DNA of 46,894 bases from positions 1-46,894 of the forward strand of contig PLCF01000008.1 of assembly GCA_003135555.1 (NCBI GenBank), in the 5' to 3' direction. A model generated the notes under the pieces. It saw nothing but the letters and a program-made list of their open reading frames with translations. It did not search any database and was not told the origin of the DNA. Shown piece by piece: positions 6,187-30,382 of the stretch. The translations under genes and the position numbers were made by a program. The stretch's first letter is position 1; every line of letters begins with the position of its first letter. This DNA is from Vulcanimicrobiota bacterium. Lineage in GTDB: Bacteria > Vulcanimicrobiota > Vulcanimicrobiia > Vulcanimicrobiales > Vulcanimicrobiaceae.

Positions 6187-6870
6187 ATGGCCGCTCTAGC
6201 GCTCGCCGCCCTCCGCTCCGACGTCAGCCTTTCGGTTCAGGTCTACGAGGGGATCCGAGCGGCGATCACGGCGACGAACCTGTACGAGATCGACGAGGCC
6301 AACCTACGTCTCGACGAGCGCGAGCTCGCCGCGCGCTTGGGCGTGAGCCGAACCCCGATCCGCGAGGCTCTGGTGCGGCTCGAGCACGAGGGTCTGGTGA
6401 CCAGTATTCCCCGGCGCGGCTACTATATCGCACGTAAGAGCAAAACCGAGCTGCTCGAGATCATCGTCGTCTGGGCCGCGCTCGAGAGCATGGCGGCGCG
6501 CCTGACCGCGCTGCAGGCTTCCGATGAGGCGATCGCCTCGTTGCGCACCATCTTCGCCACATTCGATGGCGAGCGAATCGCCGCCAAGCTCGATGAGTAC
6601 TCCGACGCCAACATCCGCTTCCACCAGCGGATCATCGAGCTGTCCGGCTGCGAGCAGTTGCGCCGCACCGCCGGCAGCATCTTCATTCACGTGCGCTCGA
6701 TCCGCCACCGCACGATCGCGGAGAACCAGCGCTTCGAACGGTCGATCGTCGACCACCTGCAGATCATCGAGTCACTCGAAGCGCGCGACGCCGACCTGGC
6801 GGAGCGGCTGGTTCGCGACCACGCGCTGGCGCTCGCCGCGCATGTCAACGCGAACGACAACGACCTCTAG
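6187..6870 (+). CDS. GntR (FadR/FCD) family transcriptional regulator
   Basis: LDERELAARLGVSRTPIREAL wHTH; FCD motifs NIRFH and DHLQII. ATG 6187 preferred because the upstream start lies inside the operator. Confidence 0.9.
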   Translation: MAALALAALRSDVSLSVQVYEGIRAAITATNLYEIDEANLRLDERELAARLGVSRTPIREALVRLEHEGLVTSIPRRGYYIARKSKTELLEIIVVWAALESMAARLTALQASDEAIASLRTIFATFDGERIAAKLDEYSDANIRFHQRIIELSGCEQLRRTAGSIFIHVRSIRHRTIAENQRFERSIVDHLQIIESLEARDADLAERLVRDHALALAAHVNANDNDL

Positions 6871-6901
6871 TATCACCGGCGACCGCGCGAGGGGACAGGC
6901 T

Positions 6902-8623
6902 ATGGCACAAGCAGCATCGGCCACGACCGATCTACCGAAACTCGACGCCGACCAGCCGGTGCAGACCGTGTCCGGTGGGCACCTCGTCGCCAAAGCGTTG
7001 AAGAACGAAGGCATCGAGGTGATCTTCACGCTGTGCGGTGGCCACATCATCGACATCTACGATGGCTGCATGGACGAGGGGATCAAGATCATCGACGTGC
7101 GCCACGAGCAAGTCGCGGCGCATGCCGCCGACGGCTACGCGCGGGTCACTGGGCGGCCGGGCTGCGCCGTCGTCACGGCTGGTCCGGGCACGACCAACGC
7201 GACCACCGGCGTCGCCAACGCGTTTCGCGCCGAGAGCCCGTTTCTGCTCATCGGCGGCCAAGGCGCGCTCAACCAGCACAAGATGGGCTCACTGCAAGAC
7301 CTTCCGCACGTCGAGATCATGCGGCCGATCACCAAGTTCGCTTCGAGCGTGGTGACGACCGAGCGCGTCGCCGATATGGTCGCAATGGCGTTCCGCGAGA
7401 GCCACAACGGCACGTTCGGCCCGTCGTACCTGGAGATCGGGCGCGACATCCTCGACGCCAAGGTCCCGCTCGACAAAGCGGTCATCCCGGCTCCGGGCCA
7501 TTACCGCGCCTCGACGAAGTCGATCGGCGACCCCAACGACATCGAAAAGCTGGCCGACATCTTGGCCAAGGCCGAGCGTCCGGCAGTGCTGTTCGGACAG
7601 CAGACGTGGACGTGTCGCGCGACCGACGCCGCGCACGAGTTCGCGCGCCGGTTCAACATTCCGGCGTTCATGAACGGCGCCGGGCGCGGCACTTTCCAGC
7701 CCGACGACCCGCATGGCTTCCAGCTCACGCGCGGCTACGCGTTCGGCAAGGCTGACGTCATCGTGATCGTCGGGACGCCGTTCGACTTCCGCATGAGCTA
7801 CGGCAAACGCCTCAAGGCGCCGACCGTCGTTCAGATCGACATGGGCTACGGAACCGTCGGCAAGAACCGCGACATCTCGCTGGGGCTCGTCGGCGACGTC
7901 GGCGCGATCCTGCGCGCGGTAACACAGGCTGCCTCGGGGCGGCTGCAGGACGGCGCGCGCGGACGCCAGCCGTGGATCGACGAGCTGCGGGCCGAAGAGA
8001 AGAAGCTCTACGACGCACGGTTGCCCAAAATCAAAAATGATGCGACGCCGATCCACCCGTTGCGCCTCGGCTACGAGATCAACGAGTTCCTCACCGCGAA
8101 CACGCGCTTCATCGGCGACGGCGGCGACGTCGTCACGGCGGCCGGCGGCATCGTGTGGCCCAAGGGACCCGGACTCTGGATGGACCCCGGGCCGCTGGGC
8201 ACGTTGGGCGTCGGCGTCTCGTTCGCAATGGCCTCGAAGTTCGCGGAGCCCGACAAGGAGGTCGTCTGCCTGTTCGGCGACGGCACGTTCGGCATGACGG
8301 GCTGGGACATGCAGACCGCGATGCGTTTCGGGCTGCCGTTCATCGGGATCGTCGGCAACAACTCATACATGAACCAGATCCGCGCCGGGCAGATCATGAA
8401 GTACGGCAAAGAGAAGGGCGACATCGGCAACTACCTCGGCGACGTCGACTTCGAGAAGTTCGCGCAGATGCTCGGCGGCTACGGCGAAGCGGTGCGGGAC
8501 CCGAAGCAGATCCGCCCCGCGCTCGAGCGCGCGCGCGAGTCCGGAAAGTGCGCCCTCATCAACGTCTGGATCGACCCGAACGAGTTCGCTCCGGGCACGA
8601 TGAACCAGACGATGTACAAGTAG
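6902..8623 (+). CDS. ThDP-dependent enzyme, oxalyl-CoA decarboxylase / 2-hydroxyacyl-CoA lyase-like
   Basis: DVRHEQVAAHAADGYAR, TAGPG, DPGPLGTLGVG, GDG...NN ThDP motif. Directly upstream of frc. Confidence 0.85.
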   Translation: MAQAASATTDLPKLDADQPVQTVSGGHLVAKALKNEGIEVIFTLCGGHIIDIYDGCMDEGIKIIDVRHEQVAAHAADGYARVTGRPGCAVVTAGPGTTNATTGVANAFRAESPFLLIGGQGALNQHKMGSLQDLPHVEIMRPITKFASSVVTTERVADMVAMAFRESHNGTFGPSYLEIGRDILDAKVPLDKAVIPAPGHYRASTKSIGDPNDIEKLADILAKAERPAVLFGQQTWTCRATDAAHEFARRFNIPAFMNGAGRGTFQPDDPHGFQLTRGYAFGKADVIVIVGTPFDFRMSYGKRLKAPTVVQIDMGYGTVGKNRDISLGLVGDVGAILRAVTQAASGRLQDGARGRQPWIDELRAEEKKLYDARLPKIKNDATPIHPLRLGYEINEFLTANTRFIGDGGDVVTAAGGIVWPKGPGLWMDPGPLGTLGVGVSFAMASKFAEPDKEVVCLFGDGTFGMTGWDMQTAMRFGLPFIGIVGNNSYMNQIRAGQIMKYGKEKGDIGNYLGDVDFEKFAQMLGGYGEAVRDPKQIRPALERARESGKCALINVWIDPNEFAPGTMNQTMYK

Positions 8624-8629
8624 CGGAAC

Positions 8630-9904
8630 ATGAGCGGCAACGGAGCTTCCTGCGACGGTTCGGCCGGCGGCCCGGTTCGCAAGGCCCTCGACGGGGTCAA
8701 GGTCCTGGACATGACGCATGTCCAGGCGGGTCCGTCGTGCACGCAGATCCTCGCCTGGCTCGGCGCCGACGTCATCAAGGTCGAGCTGCCGGGCCGCGGC
8801 GACATCACGCGCGGTCAGTTGCAAGACATCCCCGACGTGGACAGCCTCTACTTCACGATGCTGAACTGCAACAAGCGCAGCATCACGCTCAACACGAAAA
8901 CGCCCGACGGGAAAGCGATCTTCGAGCGCCTGATTCAGCACTGCGACGTCCTGGTCGAGAACTTCGGCCCGGGCGTGCTCGATCGACAGGGCTTCACCTG
9001 GGATCGCATCCGCGAGCTCAACCCGCGCATCTCCTATGCCTCGATCAAGGGCTTCGGCCCCGGCAAGTACGAGGACTTCAAGGCGTACGAGACGGTGGCG
9101 CAGGCGATGGGCGGCGGGATGAGCACGACCGGGTGGCCCGACGGTCCGCCGACGAGTAGCGGCCCGCAGATCGGCGATTCCGGCAGTGGGATTCACATGG
9201 TCGCCGCGATCCTCGCGGCGCTCTTCCAGCGCACGCACACCGGACGCGGCCAACGCGTCTCGGTCGCGATGCAAGACTCGGTGCTGAACCTGATTCGCGT
9301 GAAGATTCGCGATCAGCAGCGCTTGGCGCACGGACCGCTGCGCGAGTATCCCAACAAGACGTTCACCGACTACGTCCCGCGCTCGGGGAACGCGTCGGGC
9401 GGTGGACAGCCCGGCAGTGCGCTGCGCTGCGCGCCCGGCGGGGAGAACGACTACGTCTACGTGATCATCCAGCCGCAGGTCTGGGCGCCGCTGGCGCAGC
9501 TGATCGGCCGGCCGGACCTAGTGGACGATCCCGCCTTCGCGACGCCGGCGGCGCGCCTCAAGCGCTTGGACGACGTGTTTGGCGCCGTCGAAGCGTGGAC
9601 GAAGGGGCGCACGAAATTCGAGGTGCTCGACGCGCTCAACGAGATCGACGTGCCGTGCGGACCGATCCTGAGCACCAAGGACCTGATCGAAGACGAGTCG
9701 CTCCGCGCGCGCGGGATGATCGCAGACGTCCACCATCCCGAACGCGGCACGTTCAAGAACGTCGGCTGCCCACTCGTACTTTCGGATACGCCCGTCGAGA
9801 TAAAGACCTCGCCGCTGCTGGGCGAGCACAACGAAGAAATTCTCAAAGAGATCGGCTGGAACGGTAAGGACGCGAAGGCGCTCCACGCCGCCGGCGTGCT
9901 GTAG
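8630..9904 (+). CDS. frc: Formyl-CoA transferase (class III CoA-transferase)
   Basis: [31 protein letters not shown] catalytic Asp, [10 protein letters not shown] tetraglycine-type loop. Confidence 0.93.
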
Positions 9905-9920
9905 GAAAAGGAAGCCAGAC

Positions 9921-12068
9921 ATGCTGCTCGAGCGCCAGACCATCGACCAGGCCGCGGTGCGCGCGGTCCTCGAACGCGTCAAAGCCGACAACCGCAGCGC
10001 GCTGAGCGCGCCCGAGGCCAAAGAGGTCGCGGACGCGTACGGCCTGCCCGTTCCGCAAGAGGGTCTGGCGACGTCGGCCGACGACGCGGCTCGGCTGGCC
10101 GAGAAGATCGGCTTCCCGGTCGTGCTCAAGATCGTCTCGCCCGACATCCTCCACAAGACCGAGGCCGGCGGCGTTTTGGTCGGGGTCGAGAACGCGCAAG
10201 CCGTCCGCAGCGGCTACGATACGATCGTCGCCAACGCGCGTACGTATCAAAGCGACGCCAAGATCAGCGGCGTCCAAGTACAGCAGATGCTGCCGACCGG
10301 TGCGCAGGAAGTCATCGTCGGCGCGGTCACCGACCCGAGCTTCGGCAAGCTGGTCGCGTTCGGTCTGGGCGGCGTGCTGGTCGAAGTCCTCAAGGACATC
10401 ACCTTCCGCCTCGCGCCGGCGTCGCGCGAGGACGCGCTCTCGATGCTCGACGGCATTCAGGCCGCCGAGATGCTCAAGGGCGTACGCGGCTCCCAACCGG
10501 TCGACCGTGAGGCCCTCGCGACCATCATCGAGCGCGTCTCGCAGCTGGTGAGCGATTTCCCCGAGATCAGCGAGGTCGACCTCAACCCGGTGTTCGCGAC
10601 CCCGCGCGGCGCGACCGCGGTCGACGTGCGCATCCTAGTCGACTTCAACCCGCCGCCGCAACGCTATCGTCCGTCGCAAGACGAGATCGTGCGAGCGATG
10701 AACCGGATCATGCGGCCCGATTCGGTCGCCGTGATCGGTGCGTCGAGTGAAGACGGAAAAATCGGCAACTCGGTGATGAAGAACCTCATCAACGGCGGCT
10801 ACAAGGGCCAGATCTATCCGATCAATCCGAAAGCCAACGAGATCCTGGGCTACAAGGCGTACGCGTCGGTCAAGGACGTTCCGGGCGACGTCGACGTGGC
10901 AGTGTTCGCGATCCCGGCAAAATTCGTCGCCGCCGCCTTGATCGAATGCGGTGAGAAGAAGGTCCCCGGAGCGGTGTTGATTCCGTCGGGCTTCGCCGAA
11001 ACGGGCAACGAAGAAGGGCAGCGCGAGATCCAGGTGATCGGGCGCAAGTACAACGTGCGCATGATGGGGCCGAACATCTACGGCTTCTACTACACGCCCA
11101 AAGATCTGTGCGCGACCTTCTGCACGCCCTACGACGTGAAAGGCAGCGTCGCACTGTCGTCGCAGAGCGGCGGCGTCGGGATGGCGATCATCGGCTTCAG
11201 CCGCTCGGCGAAGATGGGCGTCTCGGCGATCGTCGGCTTAGGAAACAAAGCCGACATCGACGAGGACGACCTGCTGACGTTCTTCGAGCAAGACGACGCG
11301 ACGCAGGCGATCGCGATGCACATGGAAGACCTCAAGGACGGCCGCTCGTTCGCCGACGTCGCCAAGCGCGTCTCGAAGAAGAAGCCGATCTTGGTGCTCA
11401 AGGCCGGCCGTACCGCGCTCGGCGCGCGGGCTGCCAGCTCGCACACCGGGGCGCTGGCCGGCAACGACAAAGTGTACGACGACGTGCTGCGGCAGAGCGG
11501 CGTGATTCGTGCGCGCGGGCTCAACGAGCTGCTGCAGTTCGCCCGCGCGGTGCCGATCCTCCCGACCCCCAAGGGCGAGAACGTCGTGATCATCACCGGA
11601 GCGGGAGGCTCGGGCGTCCTGCTCTCCGATTCGGTGGTCGACGCGGGGCTGACGCTGATGAAGTTCGAGCCCGACCTCGACGAGGCGTTCAAGAAGTTCA
11701 TCCCGCCGTTCGGCGCGTCGGGAAACCCGGTCGACATCACGGGCGGCGAACCGCCCAAGACCTACCAGAACACGATCCGTCTGGGGCTTGAGGACGATCG
11801 CATCCACGCGCTCATCCTGGGCTACTGGCACACGATCGTCACGCCGCCGATGGTCTTCGCTCGGCTCGTCGTCGAAGTGGTGGAGGAGTTCCGCGCCAGG
11901 GGCATCGACAAGCCCGTCGTCGCGTCGCTGGCCGGCGACGTCGAAGTCGAAGAGGCCAGCGAGTACCTCTTCGACCACAAAATCCCAGCCTATCCGTACA
12001 ACACCGAGACGATGGTCGCCGCTCTGGGCGCGAAGTACCGGTGGGCCCGTGCGGCCGGCCTCCTGTAG
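9921..12068 (+). CDS. ADP-forming acyl-CoA synthetase (acetate--CoA ligase family), ATP-grasp domain first
   Basis: KIVSPDILHKTEAGGV, VAVIGAS, MGPN, SQSG, ASSHTGALAG (phospho-His), NPVDITG. Confidence 0.9.
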   Translation: MLLERQTIDQAAVRAVLERVKADNRSALSAPEAKEVADAYGLPVPQEGLATSADDAARLAEKIGFPVVLKIVSPDILHKTEAGGVLVGVENAQAVRSGYDTIVANARTYQSDAKISGVQVQQMLPTGAQEVIVGAVTDPSFGKLVAFGLGGVLVEVLKDITFRLAPASREDALSMLDGIQAAEMLKGVRGSQPVDREALATIIERVSQLVSDFPEISEVDLNPVFATPRGATAVDVRILVDFNPPPQRYRPSQDEIVRAMNRIMRPDSVAVIGASSEDGKIGNSVMKNLINGGYKGQIYPINPKANEILGYKAYASVKDVPGDVDVAVFAIPAKFVAAALIECGEKKVPGAVLIPSGFAETGNEEGQREIQVIGRKYNVRMMGPNIYGFYYTPKDLCATFCTPYDVKGSVALSSQSGGVGMAIIGFSRSAKMGVSAIVGLGNKADIDEDDLLTFFEQDDATQAIAMHMEDLKDGRSFADVAKRVSKKKPILVLKAGRTALGARAASSHTGALAGNDKVYDDVLRQSGVIRARGLNELLQFARAVPILPTPKGENVVIITGAGGSGVLLSDSVVDAGLTLMKFEPDLDEAFKKFIPPFGASGNPVDITGGEPPKTYQNTIRLGLEDDRIHALILGYWHTIVTPPMVFARLVVEVVEEFRARGIDKPVVASLAGDVEVEEASEYLFDHKIPAYPYNTETMVAALGAKYRWARAAGLL

Positions 12069-12164
12069 GGCTCGGCCGCCCACTCCGCGGAAGAAGATTC
12101 CTTCACTACGCTTCGAGAAGAAGATTTCTGACCCAAAACAGCACGGCTACATTGAGGGGAGCAT

Positions 12165-13481
12165 ATGACCAGCTCGATGGCACTGGCGCCCACTAGCCCG
12201 CTTCGAAATCGTTGGCTTCAACTGTTTCTTGGCATCGTCGCCATGATCATGATCGCCAACCTGCAGTACGGGTGGACACTCTTCGTTAATCCGATCAAGG
12301 ACAAGTTCGCGTGGTCGACAGCGGCCATCCAAGTGTCCTTCACCGTCTTCGTCGTCGTCGAGACCTGGCTGGTCCCGGTCGAAGGCTACATCATCGATCG
12401 CTTCGGTCCGAGCGTCATCACGATCGTCGGCGGGGTTCTCGTCGGCATCTCGTGGGTGATGTTCTCGATGGCCACGTCGCTGTGGACGTTCTACATCGGC
12501 GCGGCGATCGGTGGTATCGGCGCCGGCATCGTGTACGGCTGCACGGTGGGTCAGGCGCTGAAGTGGTTCCCGGATCGCCGCGGGCTCGCGGCCGGGCTGA
12601 CCGCGGCAGGTTTCGGCGCCGGCTCCGCGATCACGATCGTGCCGATCGCGCAGATGGTCCAGAGTAGCGGCTACCAGCACACCTTCCTGGTCTTCGGTAT
12701 CATTCAGGGCATCGTCGTCGTGCTGGTCGGCATCATCCTGCGCGCGCCGCTGCCGGGTGAAGTGCCACAAGCCATCGCTTCGACGGCGCTCAAACAGACG
12801 CTGCGCGATTTCAAACCCGGCGAGATGCTCAAAACGCCGCTGTTCTACGTCATGTACTTGGCGATGCTGTGCGTCGCGATCGGCGGCGTCATGGCGACCG
12901 CGCAGCTTGCCCCGATCGCCAGGGACTACATCGTCGACGAAGTCCCGGTCAAGGTGCTGTTCTGGATCTTGCCCGCGCTGCAGTGGGCGCTGGTCTTCGA
13001 CCGCGTGCTCAACGGCCTAGCGAGGCCGGCCTTCGGCTGGCTCTCCGACCAGATCGGTCGGGAGAACACGATGTTCATCGCATTCGGCAGTCAGGCGCTC
13101 ATCATCTTGCTGTTCATCAAGGTCGCCGCGATCCCGATGCTGTTCGTGGTCATGTCGGGCCTCGTGTTCTTCACCTACGGCGAGATCTTCAGTCTGTTCC
13201 CGTCACTGAGCGCCGATACGTACGGCCGCAAGTTCGCAACCACGAACTACGGCTTTCTCTACACAGCAAAGGGGACGGCCGCGCTGCTCGTCCCGTTCGC
13301 GAACATCATCAAAGACGCAACCGGCAGTTGGGTACCGATCTTTCAGACCGCGGCGGCGTTGAACGTCTGCGCGGCGCTGATCGCCATGTTCGTCATCAAG
13401 CCGATGCGCGCCCGAAAGGCACGAGACGAGGCCGGCCTCACCGGCGGTCCCGGGATCACTCCAGCCCCCGCCATACCGTAA
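12165..13481 (+). CDS. oxlT: Oxalate/formate antiporter (OFA family MFS)
   Basis: ANLQYGWTLFV, KWFPDRRGLAAG, GEIFSLFP, NYGFLYTAKG with the OxlT Lys. About 12 TM segments. Confidence 0.92.
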   Translation: MTSSMALAPTSPLRNRWLQLFLGIVAMIMIANLQYGWTLFVNPIKDKFAWSTAAIQVSFTVFVVVETWLVPVEGYIIDRFGPSVITIVGGVLVGISWVMFSMATSLWTFYIGAAIGGIGAGIVYGCTVGQALKWFPDRRGLAAGLTAAGFGAGSAITIVPIAQMVQSSGYQHTFLVFGIIQGIVVVLVGIILRAPLPGEVPQAIASTALKQTLRDFKPGEMLKTPLFYVMYLAMLCVAIGGVMATAQLAPIARDYIVDEVPVKVLFWILPALQWALVFDRVLNGLARPAFGWLSDQIGRENTMFIAFGSQALIILLFIKVAAIPMLFVVMSGLVFFTYGEIFSLFPSLSADTYGRKFATTNYGFLYTAKGTAALLVPFANIIKDATGSWVPIFQTAAALNVCAALIAMFVIKPMRARKARDEAGLTGGPGITPAPAIP

Positions 13482-14415: not shown

Positions 14416-15315
14416 ATGCGCGCGCTGCTCGTTGCCGTTGCATTCGCGCTCGTTCCGACGCTGGCGCCGGCAACGCCGCCCGCGATGCAGCGTCCCACGC
14501 ACTGGTCGCACGACGTGCACGCGTACCTCGCGTTCGTCGGCGGGTTTCCCGGCGAGGAGAGTTCGGTCGAGGCATACATCGTCACGTATCACGGCGAAGT
14601 CGAGCCGTTCGAGGTCGATCCGGCGAAGGTTCACGTCGACCGCGCCGCGGTCGACGGGCACGTCGAGCGTCGGGATGTCGGCCGCATCGGCGGTCTGCGG
14701 TCCTGGTCGCCCGCGTCGGACTATACGACGCACGCCCAGCTGAGCGTCGTGGTCCCGCGCTCGATGCTGCGGCGCGGGATGCAGCTGCTCGTGTTGCGCC
14801 TCGAGCCCGGCACCGTCACCCGCGGCGGAGCAGCCCAGACCTTCGCGGCTGAGGACGAGCCGCTTGGCCGCCGTTCCCGTCGTGTCTACGTCCCCGAGCC
14901 GGACACCGGGCCAGCCGCCGTGGCCGATCTCAGCGGGGCCGACGTCACGACCCGCGAGACGCTGCGGCTGCACTGTGACCTGCCGGCGGACTTTGTCGCG
15001 TGGTTCGACGCGCAGCCCGACGCGCGGTTTCGGATCGCCACGGTGACGCGCGAGATCGGTCACGCTGCCGTGCTGCAATTAGAAACGGATGCCGGCCGGA
15101 CCTGGAACTCAACCTACAAAGCACTCGACCCGTTACACGTGAGGATCGATCGGAATCACCGGCCGCCGGTGGGGCAGCCGACGGTCGTGTCGCGACGCTT
15201 TCCGCCGGCCGGTCCGCCGCCGCGCCGGACGGGGCCGGACGTCGACCACTGCACGCCGCTGGAGTTTTTCGCGGCCGACCGTGCGGACCTGGGGCGAATG
15301 ATCGCGCTTCCCTAG
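14416..15315 (+). CDS. Hypothetical secreted protein
   Basis: Signal-like N-terminus MRALLVAVAFALVPTLAPA. Fills the gap between genes; no recognised family. Confidence 0.6.
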   Translation: MRALLVAVAFALVPTLAPATPPAMQRPTHWSHDVHAYLAFVGGFPGEESSVEAYIVTYHGEVEPFEVDPAKVHVDRAAVDGHVERRDVGRIGGLRSWSPASDYTTHAQLSVVVPRSMLRRGMQLLVLRLEPGTVTRGGAAQTFAAEDEPLGRRSRRVYVPEPDTGPAAVADLSGADVTTRETLRLHCDLPADFVAWFDAQPDARFRIATVTREIGHAAVLQLETDAGRTWNSTYKALDPLHVRIDRNHRPPVGQPTVVSRRFPPAGPPPRRTGPDVDHCTPLEFFAADRADLGRMIALP

Positions 15316-16589
15316 CGGTCGTAAGCGCGGCGGAACGTCGTGTACACGTAGGGGTAGTCGAAATAGAACCAATTGCGGAACGAGCGCCGGATCATCGTCG
15401 GCGCAGTGACCGGCGAGGCACCCTTCATCACGTAGTGCATGCCGTCGAAGAAGTCCGCGGAGTAGCGCGGATAGGACGCCATCGGCGCGAATCCTTCGAA
15501 CGGCGCAAACGGCGTCGCTGTCCACTCCCAGCCGTTGCCGATCAGGTCGTGCACGCCGAACGCGCTCGCGCCCTGCGGGGACGAGCCGACGGGTTCGGGG
15601 TCGAATCGGCGCCAGCCGAAGTTGCCGTGACGGCCGGGGTCGGGCGCGGTATCGCCCCATGGTTGCGCCCGCTCATCGCCGCCGGGCGTGCCGTACGCGG
15701 CGCGTTGGTATTCCGGCTCGGTCAACAGGCGCGCGCCGCTCCAGCGCGCGAACGCCGCGGCCTGCTCCTGCGTGCAGTACACCGGCCAGGATTTCGGCAG
15801 CGGCAGATCCTCGAAGCATCCCAGCAGCATGAACTCCCCGTCGCGCTCGAACCAGAAGGCCGGGACCGGCCCACCGGCCCGCACGAACTCGAGGTACTCG
15901 GCGTTGGTCACCTTGTATGCGTCGACGGCGAACGCCGGGACGTCGACGACATGCTCGTCGAACTCGTTGTCCCAACCGAAGGCGATTGCATCGCGGCGCG
16001 CGCCGAGCGTCGCGACTCCGGAAGCGATCGCGATGGGATCGCGGCGCGCCGGCATGACGTCGCGGTGCACGCCCCGCGGGCCGCGCTGCTTCGGGCGCGC
16101 CAGCCGGTGGATGATGTAGGTCAGCGTCTCGTGGTGCATCTCCTCGTGCTCGAGGATGTTGTGGGCGGCCTGCGCGTGCACGAGGCGCGGGTTCGACGCA
16201 TCGTCGAGCTGCGCGTGCGCAAACGCGTCGAGGACCGCGGCGTCGCAGGCGGCGCCGAACGCTTGCACCGCGGCGCGATCCGGCCAGCCCGTGCGTTGGA
16301 GCTCCGCTGCGGCGGCGACGTCGCGCGGATCGATTCCGCGGTCGAAGAGCTGCTCCAACCGTGCGTCGATCGAAGGGCGGCCCAGCGCGTCGCGCACCAG
16401 CGTATAAAACGAGAACGCCGGGATGTGTCCGTCGTAGAAAATGAACGGGTTTCGAAGCGGGAGCGGCCGTTCGAGGTATGCCTCGGGCGCAAGCAGTCCG
16501 AACAGGTCAGCGGTGCGGCGGCGGTTGGCGCGATAACGCGCTGCGAACGCCTCCCGGTCGAGGGCTCCGGCGGGAGCGAGCGTGTCCAC
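15312..16589 (-). CDS. Non-heme iron sulfoxide synthase-like protein (EgtB/Egt1/OvoA family; DinB_2 + FGE-sulfatase domains)
   Basis: PLRNPFIFYDGH and EHEEMHHET (3-His iron site), RLLTEPEY, DLIGNGWEWT, RRSFRNW. GTG start at 16589. Confidence 0.85.
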   Translation of the reverse strand: MDTLAPAGALDREAFAARYRANRRRTADLFGLLAPEAYLERPLPLRNPFIFYDGHIPAFSFYTLVRDALGRPSIDARLEQLFDRGIDPRDVAAAAELQRTGWPDRAAVQAFGAACDAAVLDAFAHAQLDDASNPRLVHAQAAHNILEHEEMHHETLTYIIHRLARPKQRGPRGVHRDVMPARRDPIAIASGVATLGARRDAIAFGWDNEFDEHVVDVPAFAVDAYKVTNAEYLEFVRAGGPVPAFWFERDGEFMLLGCFEDLPLPKSWPVYCTQEQAAAFARWSGARLLTEPEYQRAAYGTPGGDERAQPWGDTAPDPGRHGNFGWRRFDPEPVGSSPQGASAFGVHDLIGNGWEWTATPFAPFEGFAPMASYPRYSADFFDGMHYVMKGASPVTAPTMIRRSFRNWFYFDYPYVYTTFRRAYDR

Positions 16590-16633
16590 GCCCGCGCTTT
16601 TACCCGGCCGCACGGCGATTCCCGCGCGACCGC

Positions 16634-18067
16634 CTAGACGCTGAGGTAGGGGTGCAGGCCGGCGACGCCGCCTTCGCGCCCGAAGCCCGACTCGCGGTAG
16701 CCGCCGAAGGGTGAGCTGGGATCGAACTGGTTGAAGGTGGAGCACCACACGACGCCGGCCTGCAGCCGCTGCGCGACGTACATCGACTTTGAGCCCTTGT
16801 CGGTCCACACGCCCGCCGAGAGGCCGTAGGGCGTGTTGTTGGCCTTCTCGATCGCTTCGTCGGCGGTGCGGAAGGTCATGATCGAAAGCACCGGGCCGAA
16901 GATCTCCTCGCGCGCGATGCGGTGCGACTGCGAGACGCCGGTGAAGAACGATGCCCGGTGGAAGAAGCCGCGCGCCGGCAGCGCGCACGACTGCTGGTAG
17001 AGCACCGCGCCTTCGGCGACCCCGCTCTGGACGAGCTCGCTGATCTTGGCGTGTTGCGCCGCGGAGTTTATCGCGCCGATGTCGGTGTTCTTGTCGAGCG
17101 GATCGCCCAACCGCAACGTCTCGATGCGCGCCTTGAGCTTGTCGACGACCTCGTCGTGCACCGATTCCTGCACCAGCAGACGCGAGCCGGCGCAGCAGAC
17201 GTGACCCTGATTGAAGTAGATCCCGGTAACGACGCCCTCGATCGCTTGGTCGAGCGGTGCATCGGCGAACACGATGTTGGCCGCTTTTCCGCCCAGCTCG
17301 AGCGTCATGCGCTTGCGCGTTCCGGCGACGGTCTTCTGGATGATCTTGCCGACCTCGGTCGAGCCGGTGAACGCGATCTTGTCGATCCCCGGATGCGCGA
17401 CGAGCGCGGCGCCGGTGCGGCCGTCGCCGGTGAGGATGTTGACGACGCCCGGCGGCAGCTCCGCCTCTTCGCAGATCTCCGCCAGCAGCAGCGCGGTGAG
17501 CGGCGTCGTCTCGGCCGGCTTGAGCACGATCGTGTTTCCGCAGGCGATCGCCGGCGCGATCTTCCAGGCCGCCATGAGCAGCGGGAAGTTCCACGGGATG
17601 ATCGAGCCGACGACGCCGACCGGTTCGGGGTGCTCGCTGCCATGGATGGCGTAGCGCAGCTTGTCGGCCCAGCCGGCGTAGTAGAAGAAGTGCGCGGCGG
17701 CTTGCACCACGTCGAAATCGCGCGACTCCTTGATGGGCTTCCCGCCATCCATGGTTTCGAGCACCGCGAGCTCGCGCGAGCGCTCGGTGATCGCGCGCGC
17801 GATGCGGTACACGAACTTCGCGCGATCGGCCGGGCGCATCGGGCGCCAGTAGCGCTCGTAGGCTTCGCGGGCCGCGGCGACGGCGCGCTCGACGTCCTCG
17901 GGCGTGCCCACGGCGACCTGGGCCAGCTCTTCTTCGGTCGCGGGGTTCACCGTCGCGAAGGTTTGGCCGCTCGACGACGGCACCCACCGGCCGCCGATGA
18001 AATGGTCGTACCGGGCCGCGATGCGGACCGGCGTGGATTCCAGCGCTGGGGCATAGGCGAGTGCCAT
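16634..18067 (-). CDS. Aldehyde dehydrogenase (deoC-associated type)
   Basis: PWNFP, KPAETTP, FTGSTEVG, LELGGK, FNQGHVCCAGS, EEIFGP. Confidence 0.95.
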   Translation of the reverse strand: MALAYAPALESTPVRIAARYDHFIGGRWVPSSSGQTFATVNPATEEELAQVAVGTPEDVERAVAAAREAYERYWRPMRPADRAKFVYRIARAITERSRELAVLETMDGGKPIKESRDFDVVQAAAHFFYYAGWADKLRYAIHGSEHPEPVGVVGSIIPWNFPLLMAAWKIAPAIACGNTIVLKPAETTPLTALLLAEICEEAELPPGVVNILTGDGRTGAALVAHPGIDKIAFTGSTEVGKIIQKTVAGTRKRMTLELGGKAANIVFADAPLDQAIEGVVTGIYFNQGHVCCAGSRLLVQESVHDEVVDKLKARIETLRLGDPLDKNTDIGAINSAAQHAKISELVQSGVAEGAVLYQQSCALPARGFFHRASFFTGVSQSHRIAREEIFGPVLSIMTFRTADEAIEKANNTPYGLSAGVWTDKGSKSMYVAQRLQAGVVWCSTFNQFDPSSPFGGYRESGFGREGGVAGLHPYLSV

Positions 18068-18098: not shown

Positions 18099-19991
18099 CT
18101 AGCCGTTGAGGTCGACCACGATCTCGGTCGCCAGGGCGAGCACGAAGCCGGCACCGACCATCGACGCCGAACGGAAGCCGATCCCGGTCTTCTTGAGCAC
18201 GGCCCACAACTCGCCGATCACGTAGATCAACGCCCCGACCGCGGTCGCGAGAAACAGCGTCGAGAGCAGCGGTGAGGACAACGCATAGCCGACGATGGTG
18301 CCGATGAACGTCGGCCCGCCGGCGACGAGTCCGGCCAGCCCGAGCTGTTTCCAGGTCGGGACCGTGCCGCGCCCGGCCAGCGGCGCGGCGATCCCGAAGC
18401 CCTCGGTCGCGTTGTGGAGCGCGAAGCCGACGATCAGCCCCACCGCGACGACGGTAGCGCCGGCCGCGGCCGACGCGCCGATCGCGAGCCCTTCGGCGAA
18501 GTTGTGCGCGCCGATCCCGACCGCGATCATCATCGCCAGCGCGAGCGGGTTGTCGGCCACCTTCGCACCGTGCCGCGCGACCCGCGACGACGCGACCCCG
18601 AGACCGCCCAGCCCGAGCATCAAGCCCAGTACAAACACGACCGCCGACGCGACGGGCGCCGGCGCGCCGCCCTTCCAAGCGATCGCCCCCGAGGTGATCG
18701 GACGCAACGCGCCTTGCGCGATCTCGACGACCAGGTACGCCAGGATCCCGATCGCCAGCGCGTTGAGCAGGCCGATCGTGTGCGGCGACAAGTTGCGCGC
18801 ACGCGCCACGGGCAGCCCCAAGAAGATCGTCAGGCCGGCGAATGCGCCCAACAGAACCGTCGCGAGAAACGACAGCTTCCCGGGCCCCTGCGGGTTCGCC
18901 GGCGGCATCGCCATGTCGCGCATCGCGGCAAGCATCGCGCCGAACTTCTGCGGGGTTCCAGCGTAGTGCAGTGCCGTGATCAATCCCGACGGCATCCCTG
19001 CGGCGTCCTCGATGTGCGCCAGCACGTGGCACTGGAGCATCCACGTTCCGGGTATCGCGTTGGCCGGTACGATCACGTCGACGCGCTGCGACGGCAAGAG
19101 TGCGATGCTGTCCTCGCGCTGCGGGCGATCGAGCGGCCACGCATCGCGCGCGATCACGATCTGTTCGTGGCCGTGGATGTGCATTGTGTGCACTTCCTCG
19201 GCTGACATCGAGACGTAGCGGATGCGCACCCGCTCGCCGCGGCGCACCTCGAGCTGCGTGGTGTCCGGATACTCCTTCCCGTTGATCGTGTTGTCGGTCT
19301 CGTTGGTGGACTGCACCGGCCACGACGACACGAACAGCAGGTAGTCGCGGTCGGCGCGTTCTTCGGGTCGCGGCTGCGCCGGATGCACGATGATCGCGCC
19401 GTACAGCCCGGCATCGAGCGCGGCCTTGCGGTCGTGGGTGTGGTAGATGAACGTTCCGGGCTGGGTCGCGGTGAAGGCGTAGCGATAGCGGCCGTGCGGC
19501 GGAACGGGGTCCTGTTCCCAGCCGGCGACGCCGTCGGCGGCGGGCGGCGTGCCGTGGATCCCGTGGAGGTGGATCGTGTCGGGGGTGTCGAGCTCATTGC
19601 GATAGTCGATCACGACCCGGTCGCCCTCGCGCACGGCGATGACCGGCCCCGGGACCACCCCGTTGTAGGTGCGCGCCATCAGCGTCAGCCCGGCTTTGAG
19701 CGTCCATGGCGCGGGGCGCCCGACGATGTGGAAGATTTTCGTGCGACCGTGAACCTCGGGCACCGCGTCGTAGGCCCCGTCGGGGCGGCGGACGATCCGG
19801 GACTCCCCCGGGAACGGGGTTGCCTGCGGGAACGGCGGTCGCAACGGCTGCATCCCGACTTGGGCCGGGTTGACGGCCATCCCCGGCATGTCGTCGGCCG
19901 AGGCCTGTCCCGGGAGCGGCGCCAGGACGGCCCAACCCACGGCGAGGGCGAGGCCGAGCTTGTAGGCCAACCTCACGGCCGACGTAGGCAT
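18099..19991 (-). CDS. Two-domain multicopper oxidase fused to a ZIP (ZupT-like) metal transporter
   Basis: Signal peptide; HLHG, YHTH, HTMHIHGH and QCHVLAH copper motifs; then about 8 TM segments with HNFAEG and LHNATEG ZIP signatures, all in one ORF. Confidence 0.88.
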   Translation of the reverse strand: MPTSAVRLAYKLGLALAVGWAVLAPLPGQASADDMPGMAVNPAQVGMQPLRPPFPQATPFPGESRIVRRPDGAYDAVPEVHGRTKIFHIVGRPAPWTLKAGLTLMARTYNGVVPGPVIAVREGDRVVIDYRNELDTPDTIHLHGIHGTPPAADGVAGWEQDPVPPHGRYRYAFTATQPGTFIYHTHDRKAALDAGLYGAIIVHPAQPRPEERADRDYLLFVSSWPVQSTNETDNTINGKEYPDTTQLEVRRGERVRIRYVSMSAEEVHTMHIHGHEQIVIARDAWPLDRPQREDSIALLPSQRVDVIVPANAIPGTWMLQCHVLAHIEDAAGMPSGLITALHYAGTPQKFGAMLAAMRDMAMPPANPQGPGKLSFLATVLLGAFAGLTIFLGLPVARARNLSPHTIGLLNALAIGILAYLVVEIAQGALRPITSGAIAWKGGAPAPVASAVVFVLGLMLGLGGLGVASSRVARHGAKVADNPLALAMMIAVGIGAHNFAEGLAIGASAAAGATVVAVGLIVGFALHNATEGFGIAAPLAGRGTVPTWKQLGLAGLVAGGPTFIGTIVGYALSSPLLSTLFLATAVGALIYVIGELWAVLKKTGIGFRSASMVGAGFVLALATEIVVDLNG

Positions 19992-20040
19992 GCCTAACTG
20001 TTACGCGAAAGGCGGACCCGCGGCCTTCCGTGCGGCGGCG

Positions 20041-27080: not shown

Positions 27081-29465
27081 CTACGGCGCGACCGTGACGG
27101 GGACGGCGAGCGTCGTGGAGGCGCCGTCGAGGCGCGATGCGGTCACGCTGAGCTGCACGTTGCTGCCCGCGCCGAGGCCGGCTGCGGTGAAATTGTACAT
27201 CGACTCCCAGTGACCGGGGGCTGTCTGCGCGAGCTGCGTTTGAAATCCGGGCGCGCCGACGGCCAGCCGCGCCGCGTTCGTCGTCGTGATCGCGACGACG
27301 CGCACCGGCGTGCCGTTGCGCACGACGGTCGGCGCGAAGCTCAGGTACAGGATGCGCACCGGATCGGTCGCCGCGGCGACGTTGACGGCGGCCGCGTCGC
27401 CGTAGGTGAAGACGGTACTCGGCGCAGCCGGCGGTGAGGGCGGCGGCCGCGGCGACGCGCCGGCCGCGGTGGGGACGAGGCTCGCCGCCACGCTCGGTAT
27501 GGCATGCGGTTTCGCGGCCGGCAGTGACGTGCCCGGCGGCAGCGTCGGCAGGGCGGCAGCGGGCGGGAGCGCGGGCAGCGCCGGCAGGCGTGAGAGGCTC
27601 GTCGCGCCCGGCGAGACGATGTGCGGCGTGACGGCGATGATGAGCTCGTTGCGCTGGTGGTTGAGTTCCTCGTTGCGAAACACGCGGCCCAGCAGCGGCA
27701 GATCCCCGAGGAGCGGGATCTTAGTTTGGTTGCGCGTCGTCGTATCTTGGATGAGCCCGCCGATGACGAGCGTTTCGTCCTCGCGCATCGCGACCGTCGT
27801 CTGGGTGTCGCGCGTCGCGATCTGCGGGATGCCGTTGGCGATCCCGGCCAGGGAGTTCACCGTCGGATGGAGCGCGACGGTGATGAAGTTCCCCGCGTTG
27901 ACGACGGGCGTGATGTCGAGCGTCACGCCGGTTTGAAACGTCTGCAGCTGGGTCGTCGCGACGGTCCCGGTGCCGCCGCCGGTGGTGGTGAGGATGGCGA
28001 TGTTGTCGCCGGCGCGGATCGTCGCGGTGCGCCCCGAGATCGTGGTGATGCGCGGATCGGCCAGTACGCGACCCTTGCCGCTCTGGATGAGCAAGTTCAA
28101 GCTCAGCCCGAACGACAGCGGCGTGCGGGTCAGCGGCTGCAAGTTCAGAAACGGTGGCGGCGTGCCCCCGTCGGGCGACGCCGGCGTCGTCTCGCCCAGC
28201 GACGTGCTGACGACCGGCGAGCTGAAGCTCAGCCCCAAGTTCTTCGCGGCGGTCTCGTCGACTTCGAGGATCTGGGTGTCCAGGATCACCAGCTTTTGCT
28301 CGACGTCGAGCTGATCGATGAGGTTCTTCGCGGCGCGAATCGCGTACGGGCTGCCGGTGAGCACGAGCTGCGTTCCGTTGGGCGGGACGGTGATGTGCAG
28401 GTCGGGCGCCTGCGCCTGCAGCGCTTGCGTCACCGTCGTCGCGATGTCGGTCGCGGACGACGACGGCGCCCCGTTGAGGCCGGGGGCCGCGGCTTTGAGC
28501 GCAATCACCTCGACGCCGCCGTTCCCGACGCCGCCGCCGGATTCGACGCCGCCGGGCTGCAGCACCGGCGGGCCGCTCGCGCCGGCCGCCGCCGTCGTGT
28601 CGAGCTGCGCGATCGCGTCGGCGATGCGCTGGTGCTGCGACGGCGTGGCCAGCACCGACAGCGCGTTGAGCGGCCCGTCCGGGCTCACTTGGGCATCCCG
28701 AAACGAGCGCGCGAGCAGCTCGCCCACGGAGCGCGCGTCGACAAATCGTAAGCGGTAGATCTGGGTGTAGCGCACGCCGGCAACGGGCTGGTCGATCAGC
28801 GCGACGAGCGCCTTGGCCTTGGCGACGTCGTCGGGCGGTCCGCTCAACACGACCGAGCCGCCGGCGACGCTGGCCCGCACGCCGCGAAACTGGTGCGCGA
28901 TCGCGCGCGCGACGTCGCGCGGCGCGGCGCGGGCGACGCGCACCGCGTCGACCGGCGCGGCGCTAGGGGCCGGCGTTACCGGCGGCGCGTCGATGGTCGC
29001 CAGCAGCGCCTTGATCTGCGCCAGATCGGCCGGCGTCGCCGCGACGAGCAACGTCCTGTTCGGCGCCGTCGTGATGCGCAGCGCCGGAAACAGGCGACGC
29101 AGCTGGGCCGCGACCACGCCGGGGACAGCGCTGCGCAGTTGCACGGCTTCGGTGGTCGGCCGGTTCGGATCGTGCACGTCGATGCCTTGCAAGATCGCGC
29201 GCATCCCGGCCACGTCGTCGGCCGGTGCGACGACGATGAGCGCACGCGCGGGCAGGTCGACGCTGATGCGCGCGCGCGGATAGACGGTGCGCAACACCGC
29301 GGCGGCCCGCCCCGGCCCGATAATCGCGATCGGCAACACGGCCGGGATGCTCGCGCTGCGCGACGGTTGCGGCTGCGCCTGCGTCGGCAGCGTCCCCGCG
29401 CCGAACGCGAGCGTCGCGAGGAGTGCGAAAAGGCGCGCATAGCGCGATGTCGATGGCGGTCTCAC
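27081..29465 (-). CDS. Secretin (GspD/PilQ-like) with repeated N-domains and a C-terminal extension
   Basis: Repeats of the NRTLLV...IKALLATID type, QILEV, VLADPRITT, TGVTLDITP, ETLVIGGLI, KIPLLGDLPLLGRVF, ELIIAVTPHI. GTG 29465 with GGAGG. Confidence 0.9.
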   Translation of the reverse strand: MRPPSTSRYARLFALLATLAFGAGTLPTQAQPQPSRSASIPAVLPIAIIGPGRAAAVLRTVYPRARISVDLPARALIVVAPADDVAGMRAILQGIDVHDPNRPTTEAVQLRSAVPGVVAAQLRRLFPALRITTAPNRTLLVAATPADLAQIKALLATIDAPPVTPAPSAAPVDAVRVARAAPRDVARAIAHQFRGVRASVAGGSVVLSGPPDDVAKAKALVALIDQPVAGVRYTQIYRLRFVDARSVGELLARSFRDAQVSPDGPLNALSVLATPSQHQRIADAIAQLDTTAAAGASGPPVLQPGGVESGGGVGNGGVEVIALKAAAPGLNGAPSSSATDIATTVTQALQAQAPDLHITVPPNGTQLVLTGSPYAIRAAKNLIDQLDVEQKLVILDTQILEVDETAAKNLGLSFSSPVVSTSLGETTPASPDGGTPPPFLNLQPLTRTPLSFGLSLNLLIQSGKGRVLADPRITTISGRTATIRAGDNIAILTTTGGGTGTVATTQLQTFQTGVTLDITPVVNAGNFITVALHPTVNSLAGIANGIPQIATRDTQTTVAMREDETLVIGGLIQDTTTRNQTKIPLLGDLPLLGRVFRNEELNHQRNELIIAVTPHIVSPGATSLSRLPALPALPPAAALPTLPPGTSLPAAKPHAIPSVAASLVPTAAGASPRPPPSPPAAPSTVFTYGDAAAVNVAAATDPVRILYLSFAPTVVRNGTPVRVVAITTTNAARLAVGAPGFQTQLAQTAPGHWESMYNFTAAGLGAGSNVQLSVTASRLDGASTTLAVPVTVAP

Positions 29466-29614
29466 CCGGCGATACCTCCGTCCTGTCGTTGTCGGTTCCC
29501 CGATCGTTTCGGCGCGACCTCCGCCGGCTGCAGCGTCGCAAGGGACGCGCCGTTGCGACCAGCGAAGAGCCGGAACGCACAGACGTTCCTTGCGGGGTGT
29601 AGGGATGGTGGCTG

Positions 29615-30382
29615 ATGACGGGTGACATCGATGTGCTGCGCGCCGAAGAGCGCGCTCGGCTGGCGGCGGCGCTCGCCGACTGGGGTACGCCCGACTACCT
29701 GGCGGTTCGCGCGCTGACCGCGCTGAGCGCCGACGGCGACCATCGCGTCGGCCGCCTGACCGCGATGGGGCGCCAATTCGCCGCCGATCTGCGCCGGCGC
29801 GCGCGGGAGCCGGGCGGCGTCGCCGGCCTGCTCGACGATGCGCCGTGCCTGCGCGAGCGGATCCTCGAGGCGGCGTCCACGCAAATCGTGCACGCCGACA
29901 CACGGACGGTCACCGTCGGGACGGTGTCGCGCGAGACCGGGATCCCACGGCGCACGGTCTACAACCTGTACGCCTCGAGCGAGGAGCTGGCCCAAGCGTG
30001 CCGGCGCCGCAATCACACGGTCTGGCGCGCGCACTTCGAGCAGCGCGTCCTGAGCGCGAGCGCGGCCCCGCGCGAACGGCTCCCCGCGGTCTTCGCGACG
30101 GTTGACGAGTGGGTCGGCTCGGCGCGCTTTCGCGGCGACGAGGCGTTGCGCGCCCCGGCGACGTTCGCCGACGAGCTGCGCGACGACGATTTGCGCGAGC
30201 ACCTCGCCGAGATCGAGCGCTTCGCCACGGCGCTCGCGTTTGCCGCGAAGCTCGGCGCGCCGGCGGTGTTCGCCGCTTTCGTAGTCACCTGCGTCGCGGG
30301 GGCGATCGGTTGGCTCGATCGGCGCGGGTCGGCGCGCGACGCGGCGCTGGCCTGCGCGCAACGGTTCATGCTGCCGCCGTAG
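29615..30382 (+). CDS. TetR/AcrR-like regulator with an N-terminal extension
   Basis: RERILEAA...TVGTVSRETGIPRRTVYNLYASSEEL HTH starting near residue 80. Confidence 0.7.
   Translation: MTGDIDVLRAEERARLAAALADWGTPDYLAVRALTALSADGDHRVGRLTAMGRQFAADLRRRAREPGGVAGLLDDAPCLRERILEAASTQIVHADTRTVTVGTVSRETGIPRRTVYNLYASSEELAQACRRRNHTVWRAHFEQRVLSASAAPRERLPAVFATVDEWVGSARFRGDEALRAPATFADELRDDDLREHLAEIERFATALAFAAKLGAPAVFAAFVVTCVAGAIGWLDRRGSARDAALACAQRFMLPP

Follow-up and report, generated by a model that had tools for sequence, protein, structure and literature searches.

Can a copper oxidase and a metal transporter that share one polypeptide act as a single uptake system and, if so, for which metal? The question is raised by a gene in a 46,894-nucleotide stretch of DNA from a Vulcanimicrobiota bacterium (contig PLCF01000008.1 of assembly GCA_003135555.1; hereafter "the window"), which joins a two-domain multicopper oxidase (2dMCO) to a ZIP-family transporter and is referred to here as the multicopper oxidase (MCO)-ZIP fusion. 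The initial annotation, made from the sequence alone, had proposed a redox-coupled or metal-capturing uptake module, with oxidation of Cu(I) to Cu(II) followed by import as its lead example. An uptake module is still the best reading of what proves to be a conserved fusion, although oxidase activity cannot be assumed for the window copy because a histidine of its trinuclear copper cluster is replaced (Q320). The copper example fared less well: iron is the likelier metal, since the IdeR-type box at the fusion's start codon precedes feoAB and FTR1 elsewhere, and since both the distribution of FeoB/FTR1 and an acidic signature in the oxidase point the same way. Our best explanation, which we favour tentatively and as nearly an even call, is an iron-starvation importer in which the oxidase binds and oxidises Fe(II) and passes it to the tethered ZIP.

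Conservation and layout of the fusion

The best 120 of 881 database relatives share 58–88% identity with the query, 119 of them covering at least 92% of it and one 90%, and are fused rather than encoded as two unlinked genes, the arrangement that the initial annotation had considered as a possible finding. Few relatives carry a taxon name; where they do, it is mostly Eremiobacterota/Vulcanimicrobiota, and the same holds for the majority of the 80 named-genome loci. A match to the fusion was found in 106 of 141 genomes of the class (a set that includes G065 and G075, flagged as unpublished), and a single open frame crosses the junction in 104 of these 106: 96, this genome included, are full-length in one frame, and eight are in one frame over the junction but clipped by contig ends or upstream breaks. 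The match in G104 contains one stop, and that in G009 encodes an oxidase that has one membrane anchor and lacks the ZIP. This last locus (L146:5832-7049), P0123 and P0124 are in-clade derivatives in which the oxidase ends in a short C-terminal tail or a single anchor without ZIP; in P0123 the type 1 (T1) copper Cys and several histidines are gone.

At the read level, contigs from four of 13 matching runs, all four peat metagenomes, were compared. Overlapping contigs with 0–2 differences cover 18537-19260, which includes the junction and the QCH codon discussed below, in three studies (X2, X5, X6), and the junction near 18880-18960, where a stop or frameshift had been considered, shows no break. 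One lower-identity contig in X5 carries a compensated +1/−1 at 18925/18930. No RNA dataset holding the fusion sequence was among the listed runs, and a look-up in the ESM Atlas returned solely the protein's own cluster. An assembly artefact is ruled out by the fused relatives, the junctions in the class genomes and the independent contigs.

The domain order described in the initial annotation (signal peptide, two cupredoxins, Met-rich linker and eight-helix ZIP in one open reading frame, ORF) was borne out by Pfam and by an AF2 model, the signal peptide being predicted. Pfam places Cu-oxidase_3 at residues 101-206 (E 2.6e-32), Cu-oxidase_2 at 230-329 (E 1.2e-24) and Zip at 485-591 (37.7 bits vs a cut-off of 35.1). 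Every motif that had been cited is present in the translation: HLHGIH (141-146), YHTHDR (183-188), HTMHIHGH (268-275) and QCHVLAH (320-326) in the MCO half, and MLAAMRDMAM (353-362), HNFAEG (496-501) and HNATEG (526-531) in the linker and ZIP. The AF2 model of the whole protein, built from a 150-row alignment (pLDDT 91.3, pTM 0.73), folds into two cupredoxin sandwiches, a linker helix (352-361), a flexible stretch (364-368) and eight long ZIP helices; docking of the MCO and ZIP domains scored 0.00 and carries no weight either way. We infer an N-terminal signal peptide from a terminus that is hydrophobic by hydropathy and helical at residues 3-23 in the model, and from a cleavage site of the form A-x-A before D, found in 183/213 fusions and here reading A-S-A before DD; a Tat motif was found in 0/213 fusions. 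An alternative GTG start lies at 19976. Linkers of the fusions hold 2-6 Met, with M353 kept in 118/120 and M357 in 119/120 relatives. Codon-position GC of the fusion gene is the same as in neighbouring genes, and in this 84%-complete genome the gene is both the sole MCO match and the sole ZIP match.

An IdeR-type box and the genes it precedes

The evidence for iron begins at the start codon. Of 80 related loci, 76 have the palindrome TTAGG-N4-CCTAA with at most one mismatch, 64 of them exactly, as against 0 of 1499 control windows, and it fits the IdeR half site (PMC10317159). It is a single-dimer half site and not the full 19-bp IdeR box. In this genome the fusion's box is the second-best matrix match. 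The operator is centred on the ATG. As no Shine-Dalgarno sequence was seen at the gene start, the transcript is likely leaderless. Between the deoC stop and the operator lies a GC-rich 43-nt spacer (window 19998-20040) with a weak predicted fold and no U-tract.

In G038 and G108 the same box stands just upstream of feoAB (2/2; the ORFs begin 37-40 nt after the first base of the box) and just upstream of FTR1 (2/2). These are also the 2 of 141 class genomes in which FeoB_C or an over-cut-off FTR1 was found, and both are without the fusion. The box was also seen before genes for TonB-plug proteins, a HiPIP-like gene and a CxxCH porin-like gene accompanied by YceI or a three-domain MCO, and several exact box matches lie within or close to unrelated genes. 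Neither the conserved neighbours nor the box-bearing genes that were inspected included a copper gene. At L101 (G038:C1:1077701) an exact operator precedes a ferredoxin-reductase-like gene that is divergent from a NifH-family gene.

A comparison of 30 DtxR proteins from 22 genomes resolved two groups. Clade A has Cys at position 102 in 22/22, with Met (8/22) or Glu (14/22) at position 10, and in both family-f3 genomes examined (G034 and G060) a Met10/Cys102-type DtxR gene follows the box and immediately precedes the fusion; sulfur ligands in DtxR-type regulators favour Fe (PMC10317159). The second group (8/30) is MntR-like, with Asp/Glu ligands and a different palindrome, and stands beside an MntH-type Nramp in 6/8 cases; this regulator and its own box also occur in genomes that carry the fusion. 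Its palindrome, GTTA(A/C/G/T)CCA(T/A)(G/T)G(C/T)TAAC, lies ~25-44 nt upstream (L164, L166, L171, L174, L175, L177, L178, L179). The only DtxR found in this genome is the Cys-type L081:1300-1986 (G000:C56), whose best NCBIfam/PDB matches are MntR-like or mixed, every NCBIfam match being below cut-off. An Asn at its ancillary-site His79 (RRNRLAE) is common to 10 other Cys-type copies.

The CxxCH gene merits separate description. In many genomes of the class, this operator is followed by the gene for a secreted protein of 360-380 aa that has an N-terminal CxxCH and no Pfam match, and then by YceI or an MCO lipoprotein of three domains (L098:1521-2648, L103, L104, L105, L111, L119, L121, L122, L123, L193, L206, L207, L208, L221). 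None of the protein's look-alikes in the Atlas is named, and one shows a porin family at 20%; the protein resembles the Cyc2-type cytochrome-porins. Eremiobacterota Cyc2-like genes have been taken as markers of Fe(II) oxidation (PMC8357290); an iron-repressed promoter on the CxxCH gene would instead point to uptake. Two distant CxxCH porin-like genes occur in this genome, G000:C58:84671-85639 (L188) and G000:C16:3301-4248 (L189), each directly behind an apparent small cupredoxin-like gene as read by eye; the C58 copy showed no strong operator nearby.

The oxidase half

The nearest solved relatives of the oxidase are two-domain MCOs (2zwn: E 4e-43, fold Z 33.2, rmsd 2.1, 271 aligned), and a PDB search with domain 2 alone gave no match. 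The T1 ligands H268/C321/H326 are present in 213/213 fusions and in domain 2 only; domain 1 has no T1 site and no Cys, and reads H-T/S-H across the fusions (HTH here) where HCH would be expected. Since the T1 ligands are confined to domain 2, the oxidase is of type B, the class in which T1 copper sits in domain 2 and trimers form the cluster between subunits (PMC13151041). The eight-histidine set of the type 2/type 3 (T2/T3) cluster (HxH, HxH, HxxHxH, HCH) is complete in 205/213 fusions and 7/8 here (Q320). By its fold and its T1 site the protein is nevertheless a 2dMCO of type B. L337, which is present in 213/213 fusions, precedes the last strand and matches the domain-1 repeat position, is likely the axial T1 position because of this invariance and placement; M333 is disfavoured as axial ligand, being Met in 187/213 and lacking the alignment with the domain-1 repeat that L337 has. 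A copper nitrite reductase was rejected (TIGR02376 58.5 bits vs a cut-off of 296.3; domain 1 without a Cys/HC motif).

What distinguishes the ZIP-fused oxidases is an acidic trio (positions 231, 265/266 and 325), which occurs together in 35/38 ZIP-fused and 6/61 free 2dMCOs, counted over MCO regions with an intact domain-2 T1 (18/117 rows dropped) and among relatives that are not independent. Two of the three positions adjoin T1 histidines in sequence. The window protein has E231 and E265; position 325, Asp in 211/213 fusions, is Ala here. In Fet3p, acidic residues near T1 (D283, D409, E185) underlie ferroxidase activity, and O2-dependent ferroxidase activity is described for a type B 2dMCO domain (both bioRxiv 10.64898/2026.07.28.741245).

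A clade with glutamine at a copper-cluster position

The 213 MCO-ZIP fusions divide into 205 with HCH and eight with QCH, the latter being the window protein and its seven nearest relatives. The initial annotation had quoted the QCH correctly and overlooked that it entails the loss of a conserved copper ligand. A sequencing error is rejected, as zero-difference contigs in X2, X5 and X6 cover the same Gln320 codon and Gln is fixed in eight clusters. The clade is monophyletic (SH-aLRT 100 in a quick IQ-TREE run on 60 of 117 rows; FastTree 0.992), with a pairwise identity of ~70%. It keeps T1 in 8/8 together with the other seven cluster histidines, and alters E219, W259, M152, S159, T272 and D291, each conserved in at least 90% of the HCH group; D325 is also gone in the window protein and P0002. 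Conservation within the clade is 0.71-0.73 for the MCO domains vs 0.71 for the ZIP domains. Outside it, QCH was seen in single sequences, namely the free MCO P0239 and the reverse-order fusion P0129, whose branch is separate and has strong support. The equivalent His-to-Gln change in Fet3p reportedly retains copper and impairs O2 reactivity, and the oxidase of the window copy may likewise be slowed or altered, not lost.

The ZIP half and its other fusion partners

H496, N497, E500, H526, N527 and E530 are invariant in 213/213 fusions, E423 in transmembrane helix (TM) 2 and E594 in TM7 are each kept in 212/213, and T561 stands where BbZIP has its TM6 Glu. A profile built from 27 ZIP domains matches BbZIP residues 59-306 over all eight helices (E 3e-11), unlike a single-sequence PDB search with the ZIP domain, which gave no match; the fold search with the whole model returned cupredoxin matches only, with none for the ZIP part. 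The ZupT equivalog NF003243 scores 30.8-33.4 bits, below its curated cut-off of 252. By predicted fold, TM4/TM5 motifs and Pfam, the C-terminal half is a ZIP family member, and divalent import is predicted.

In a 50%-clustered library this ZIP subfamily occurs alone or fused to several redox domains. The ZIP precedes a 2dMCO in P0126 and P0129 (in P0209 the ZIP-like region is degenerate and not matched by Pfam), a cupredoxin in P0227, P0236 and P0262, and a cytochrome c in P0171. That both domain orders occur implies at least two events of MCO-ZIP joining, as judged from these sequences. P0236 and P0257 combine ZIP and a cupredoxin-like domain with an extra ~230-aa helical domain without a Pfam match.

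Which metal, and by what mechanism

In the importer that we favour, a Cys-type DtxR repressor would block the promoter when iron is sufficient. The periplasmic oxidase domains would trimerise, as in all 2dMCOs, and form the cluster between subunits; E231/E265/D325 would provide an iron site beside the T1 copper, and the ZIP would take over the oxidised or newly released ion in the way that Ftr1 receives it from Fet3. In the QCH clade, with one T3 ligand replaced by Gln and T1 and seven histidines kept, O2 turnover would be slower or altered.

Several observations weigh against this explanation. What weakens it most is that the ZIPs characterised so far carry divalent ions, and the His2/Glu2 site of the fusion resembles a normal divalent site. 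The acidic residues are put near T1 by sequence position alone, and the window copy has neither H320 nor D325. The replacement of the fusion by FeoB/FTR1 is limited to one genus and thus counts as one event, and 33 class genomes lack the fusion, FeoB and FTR1, from which it follows that the fusion is not the sole iron route; Nramps are present in 141/141. The box also precedes FeoB, itself a ferrous importer, and in G030 and G115 an Nramp without a DPGN-type motif. Sequence shuffles give 0-3 sites scoring as high as the fusion's box, so that it is the position of the box that carries weight, and a matrix scan found no second strong box-bearing uptake gene in this genome. In the DtxR of this genome Glu occupies position 10 and Asn replaces His79, and Mn can be bound by a DtxR protein that contains Cys (PMC4805248). 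Finally, kin are not independent in the counts cited.

The nearest alternative keeps iron as the cargo and dispenses with obligatory oxidation: the ZIP would carry Fe(II), and the copper domain would be an iron trap, a one-electron relay (possibly for Fe(III) reduction) or an overflow oxidase for excess Fe(II) at the membrane, with O2 reduction partly given up in the QCH clade. It draws on the same iron-regulon evidence and agrees with ZIPs taking divalent ions, with a clade that keeps T1 (8/8) while changing H320, E219, W259, M152, S159, T272 and D291, and with related ZIPs joined to the one-electron carriers cytochrome c and cupredoxin; the sequence, moreover, occurs in peat metagenomes, and Fe(II) is commonly available in peat. 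What this alternative accommodates poorly is that all eight cluster histidines are kept in 205/213 fusions and seven in the QCH clade, a retention that implies selection for a loaded cluster; nor is there an electron donor gene nearby, in a neighbourhood that is not conserved. We consider it unlikely, though far from negligible, and with the oxidising importer it makes iron the probable target overall. A bolder form of the oxidising importer is less likely than not: the ZIP subfamily that is repeatedly wired to periplasmic redox partners would be an oxidation-coupled, possibly ferric, iron permease and the main iron importer of an entire class from soil and peat in which FeoB and FTR1 are almost absent, and in the QCH clade a natural trinuclear cluster with a Gln ligand would be adapted to slow turnover or low oxygen.

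Other metals are less probable. For copper acquisition, the oxidase would make Cu(II) from Cu(I) for the ZIP and the Met-bearing linker would be a Cu(I) site. Cu(II) suits the charge preference of ZIPs, the linkers do hold several Met, and in Nitrososphaera viennensis MCO1, which shares the Leu axial residue with the fusion, rises with its adjacent permease under Cu limitation (PMC7785015). We nevertheless regard copper as improbable, given an IdeR-type operator that precedes iron importers, the lack of a copper gene in the inspected sets of conserved neighbours and box-bearing genes, conserved Mets that sit on a predicted helix, and an archaeal copper proposal that its own authors call untested. 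Manganese, with Mn-responsive expression, Mn(II) import by the ZIP and an oxidase that binds or oxidises Mn, seems slightly more remote again: Glu in place of Met at position 10 in 14/22 Cys-type regulators including this genome's, the MntR-like or mixed best matches of the latter (the NCBIfam ones below cut-off) and the box before Nramp in two genomes are offset by a separate MntR-like regulator with its own box beside MntH-type Nramps in fusion-bearing genomes, by the box before feoAB and FTR1, and by the fact that oxidation of Mn(II) would lower its availability for import. It is very improbable that the window copy is decaying, or has a dead oxidase, and that its ZIP acts alone. H320 is gone, as is D325 in P0001 and P0002, and the operator has one mismatch; against this, the clade is old (~70% pairwise identity) and well supported (SH-aLRT 100), Gln is fixed in 8/8 with the other ligands kept, and its MCO domains are conserved as well as its ZIP domains (0.71-0.73 vs 0.71).

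Feature coordinates and neighbouring genes

Table 1 Positions of the fusion gene, its domains and its operator in the window.
Feature	Position	Strand	Details
MCO-ZIP fusion gene	18099..19991	minus	630 aa, ORF without internal stop
Operator TTAGGCATGCCTAC	19984..19997	read on minus strand	one mismatch to TTAGG-N4-CCTAA, centred on ATG
Predicted Sec signal peptide	19896..19991	minus	residues 1-32; inferred
Cupredoxin domain 1	19374..19742	minus	residues 84-206; cluster ligands H141, H143, H184, H186, D153
Cupredoxin domain 2	18963..19349	minus	residues 215-343; T1 H268, C321, H326; cluster H271, H273, H322
QCH motif	19026..19034	minus	Gln320 (codon CAG) in place of T3 histidine
Linker	18876..18956	minus	residues 346-372; predicted Met-bearing helix 352-361, low-confidence 364-368
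ZIP domain	18102..18875	minus	eight helices; TM4 H496-N497-E500, TM5 H526-N527-E530

The gene neighbourhood of the fusion is not conserved across the 80 loci and adds nothing to its function. A functional link to deoC, the aldehyde dehydrogenase or the EgtB-like gene was rejected, none of them being in the 22 commonest neighbour clusters of these loci, and an insertion into a deoC-aldH operon is not claimed, as aldH lies within 1.5 kb of deoC in only 1/5 same-genus genomes. The gene at 15315-16640 (minus), which overlaps the aldehyde dehydrogenase stop, combines DinB_2 with FGE-sulfatase and is matched equally by OvoA, SenA and EgtB models, all below cut-off. Elsewhere in the window, a TPP enzyme, a CoA-transferase III, an acyl-CoA ligase and an MFS transporter in series at 6524-13481 (plus) likely form an oxalate-use cluster, judging by these assignments. 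The genes at 31659-36428 (minus) and 27084-29903 (minus) encode a protein of 1590 aa, matched weakly by subtilase and by nothing else, and, close to it, a secretin.

Comparison with known systems

No description of an MCO-ZIP fusion, and hence no prior characterisation, was found in the full-text literature, largely without subscription papers and supplements, in agreement with the initial annotation. New here are the QCH clade, the FeoB/FTR1 pattern, the split between two regulators and the acidic signature. With both halves in one polypeptide, coupling is testable by a single construct and domain deletions. If true, the proposed importer would explain the iron supply of an abundant, mostly uncultured soil lineage with almost no FeoB/FTR1. 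The QCH clade is a natural test of how far a copper cluster can change.

To our knowledge, the only permeases for which coupling to an oxidase is established are of the FTR1 type, and we know of no ZIP held to depend on a redox partner, the family being held to carry divalent ions without one. The nearest described arrangement is that of the ammonia-oxidising archaea, whose separate MCO1 and ZIP genes have been proposed for Cu uptake, untested according to the authors (PMC7785015, PMC7819960). In N. viennensis under Cu limitation, upregulation was moderate (MCO1 log2FC 0.81, adjacent permease 1.33; PMC7785015). NVIE_000600/NVIE_000590 resemble the fusion in a 2dMCO adjoining a ZIP permease, a Leu axial residue and a proposal of oxidase-assisted uptake; they differ in being two genes with a copper proposal, whereas here the halves are fused behind an IdeR-type box, and the likeness is by description only. 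The fusion bears directly on that untested archaeal proposal.

The oxidase has its best sequence and fold matches in the 2dMCOs 2zwn (mgLAC), 3g5w (N. europaea BCO) and 3gdc. It shares T1 in domain 2 with the type B CjMCO, unlike 2zwn and 3g5w with T1 in domain 1, and the fusion family differs from those 2dMCOs in that its T1 loop is lengthened, its axial residue is likely Leu and it has a membrane partner, with QCH added in this clade. The transporter shares the eight-helix fold and the TM4/TM5 metal motifs with BbZIP/ZupT-type proteins, but neither of its motifs contains Pro, Thr replaces the TM6 Glu, a His-rich TM3-4 loop is lacking and outer TM2 carries a near-invariant acidic residue (E423, 212/213), and its N-terminal domain is an enzyme.

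Yeast Fet3p-Ftr1p is alike in coupling an MCO outside the membrane to an iron permease (PMC7785015) and in the acidic residues near T1, placed by sequence here (bioRxiv 10.64898/2026.07.28.741245). The fusion differs from it in being one polypeptide, with a two-domain trimer-type oxidase and a permease of the ZIP fold and not FTR1. No PF03239 (FTR1) match was found in the protein or in this genome, and by membership the fusion is not an OFeT (Fet3/Ftr1-type) system. In EfeUOB and FtrABCD, a periplasmic copper or heme redox partner serves an FTR1-family iron permease on separate polypeptides; the fusion differs from both in using a ZIP permease and in carrying oxidase and permease on one polypeptide.

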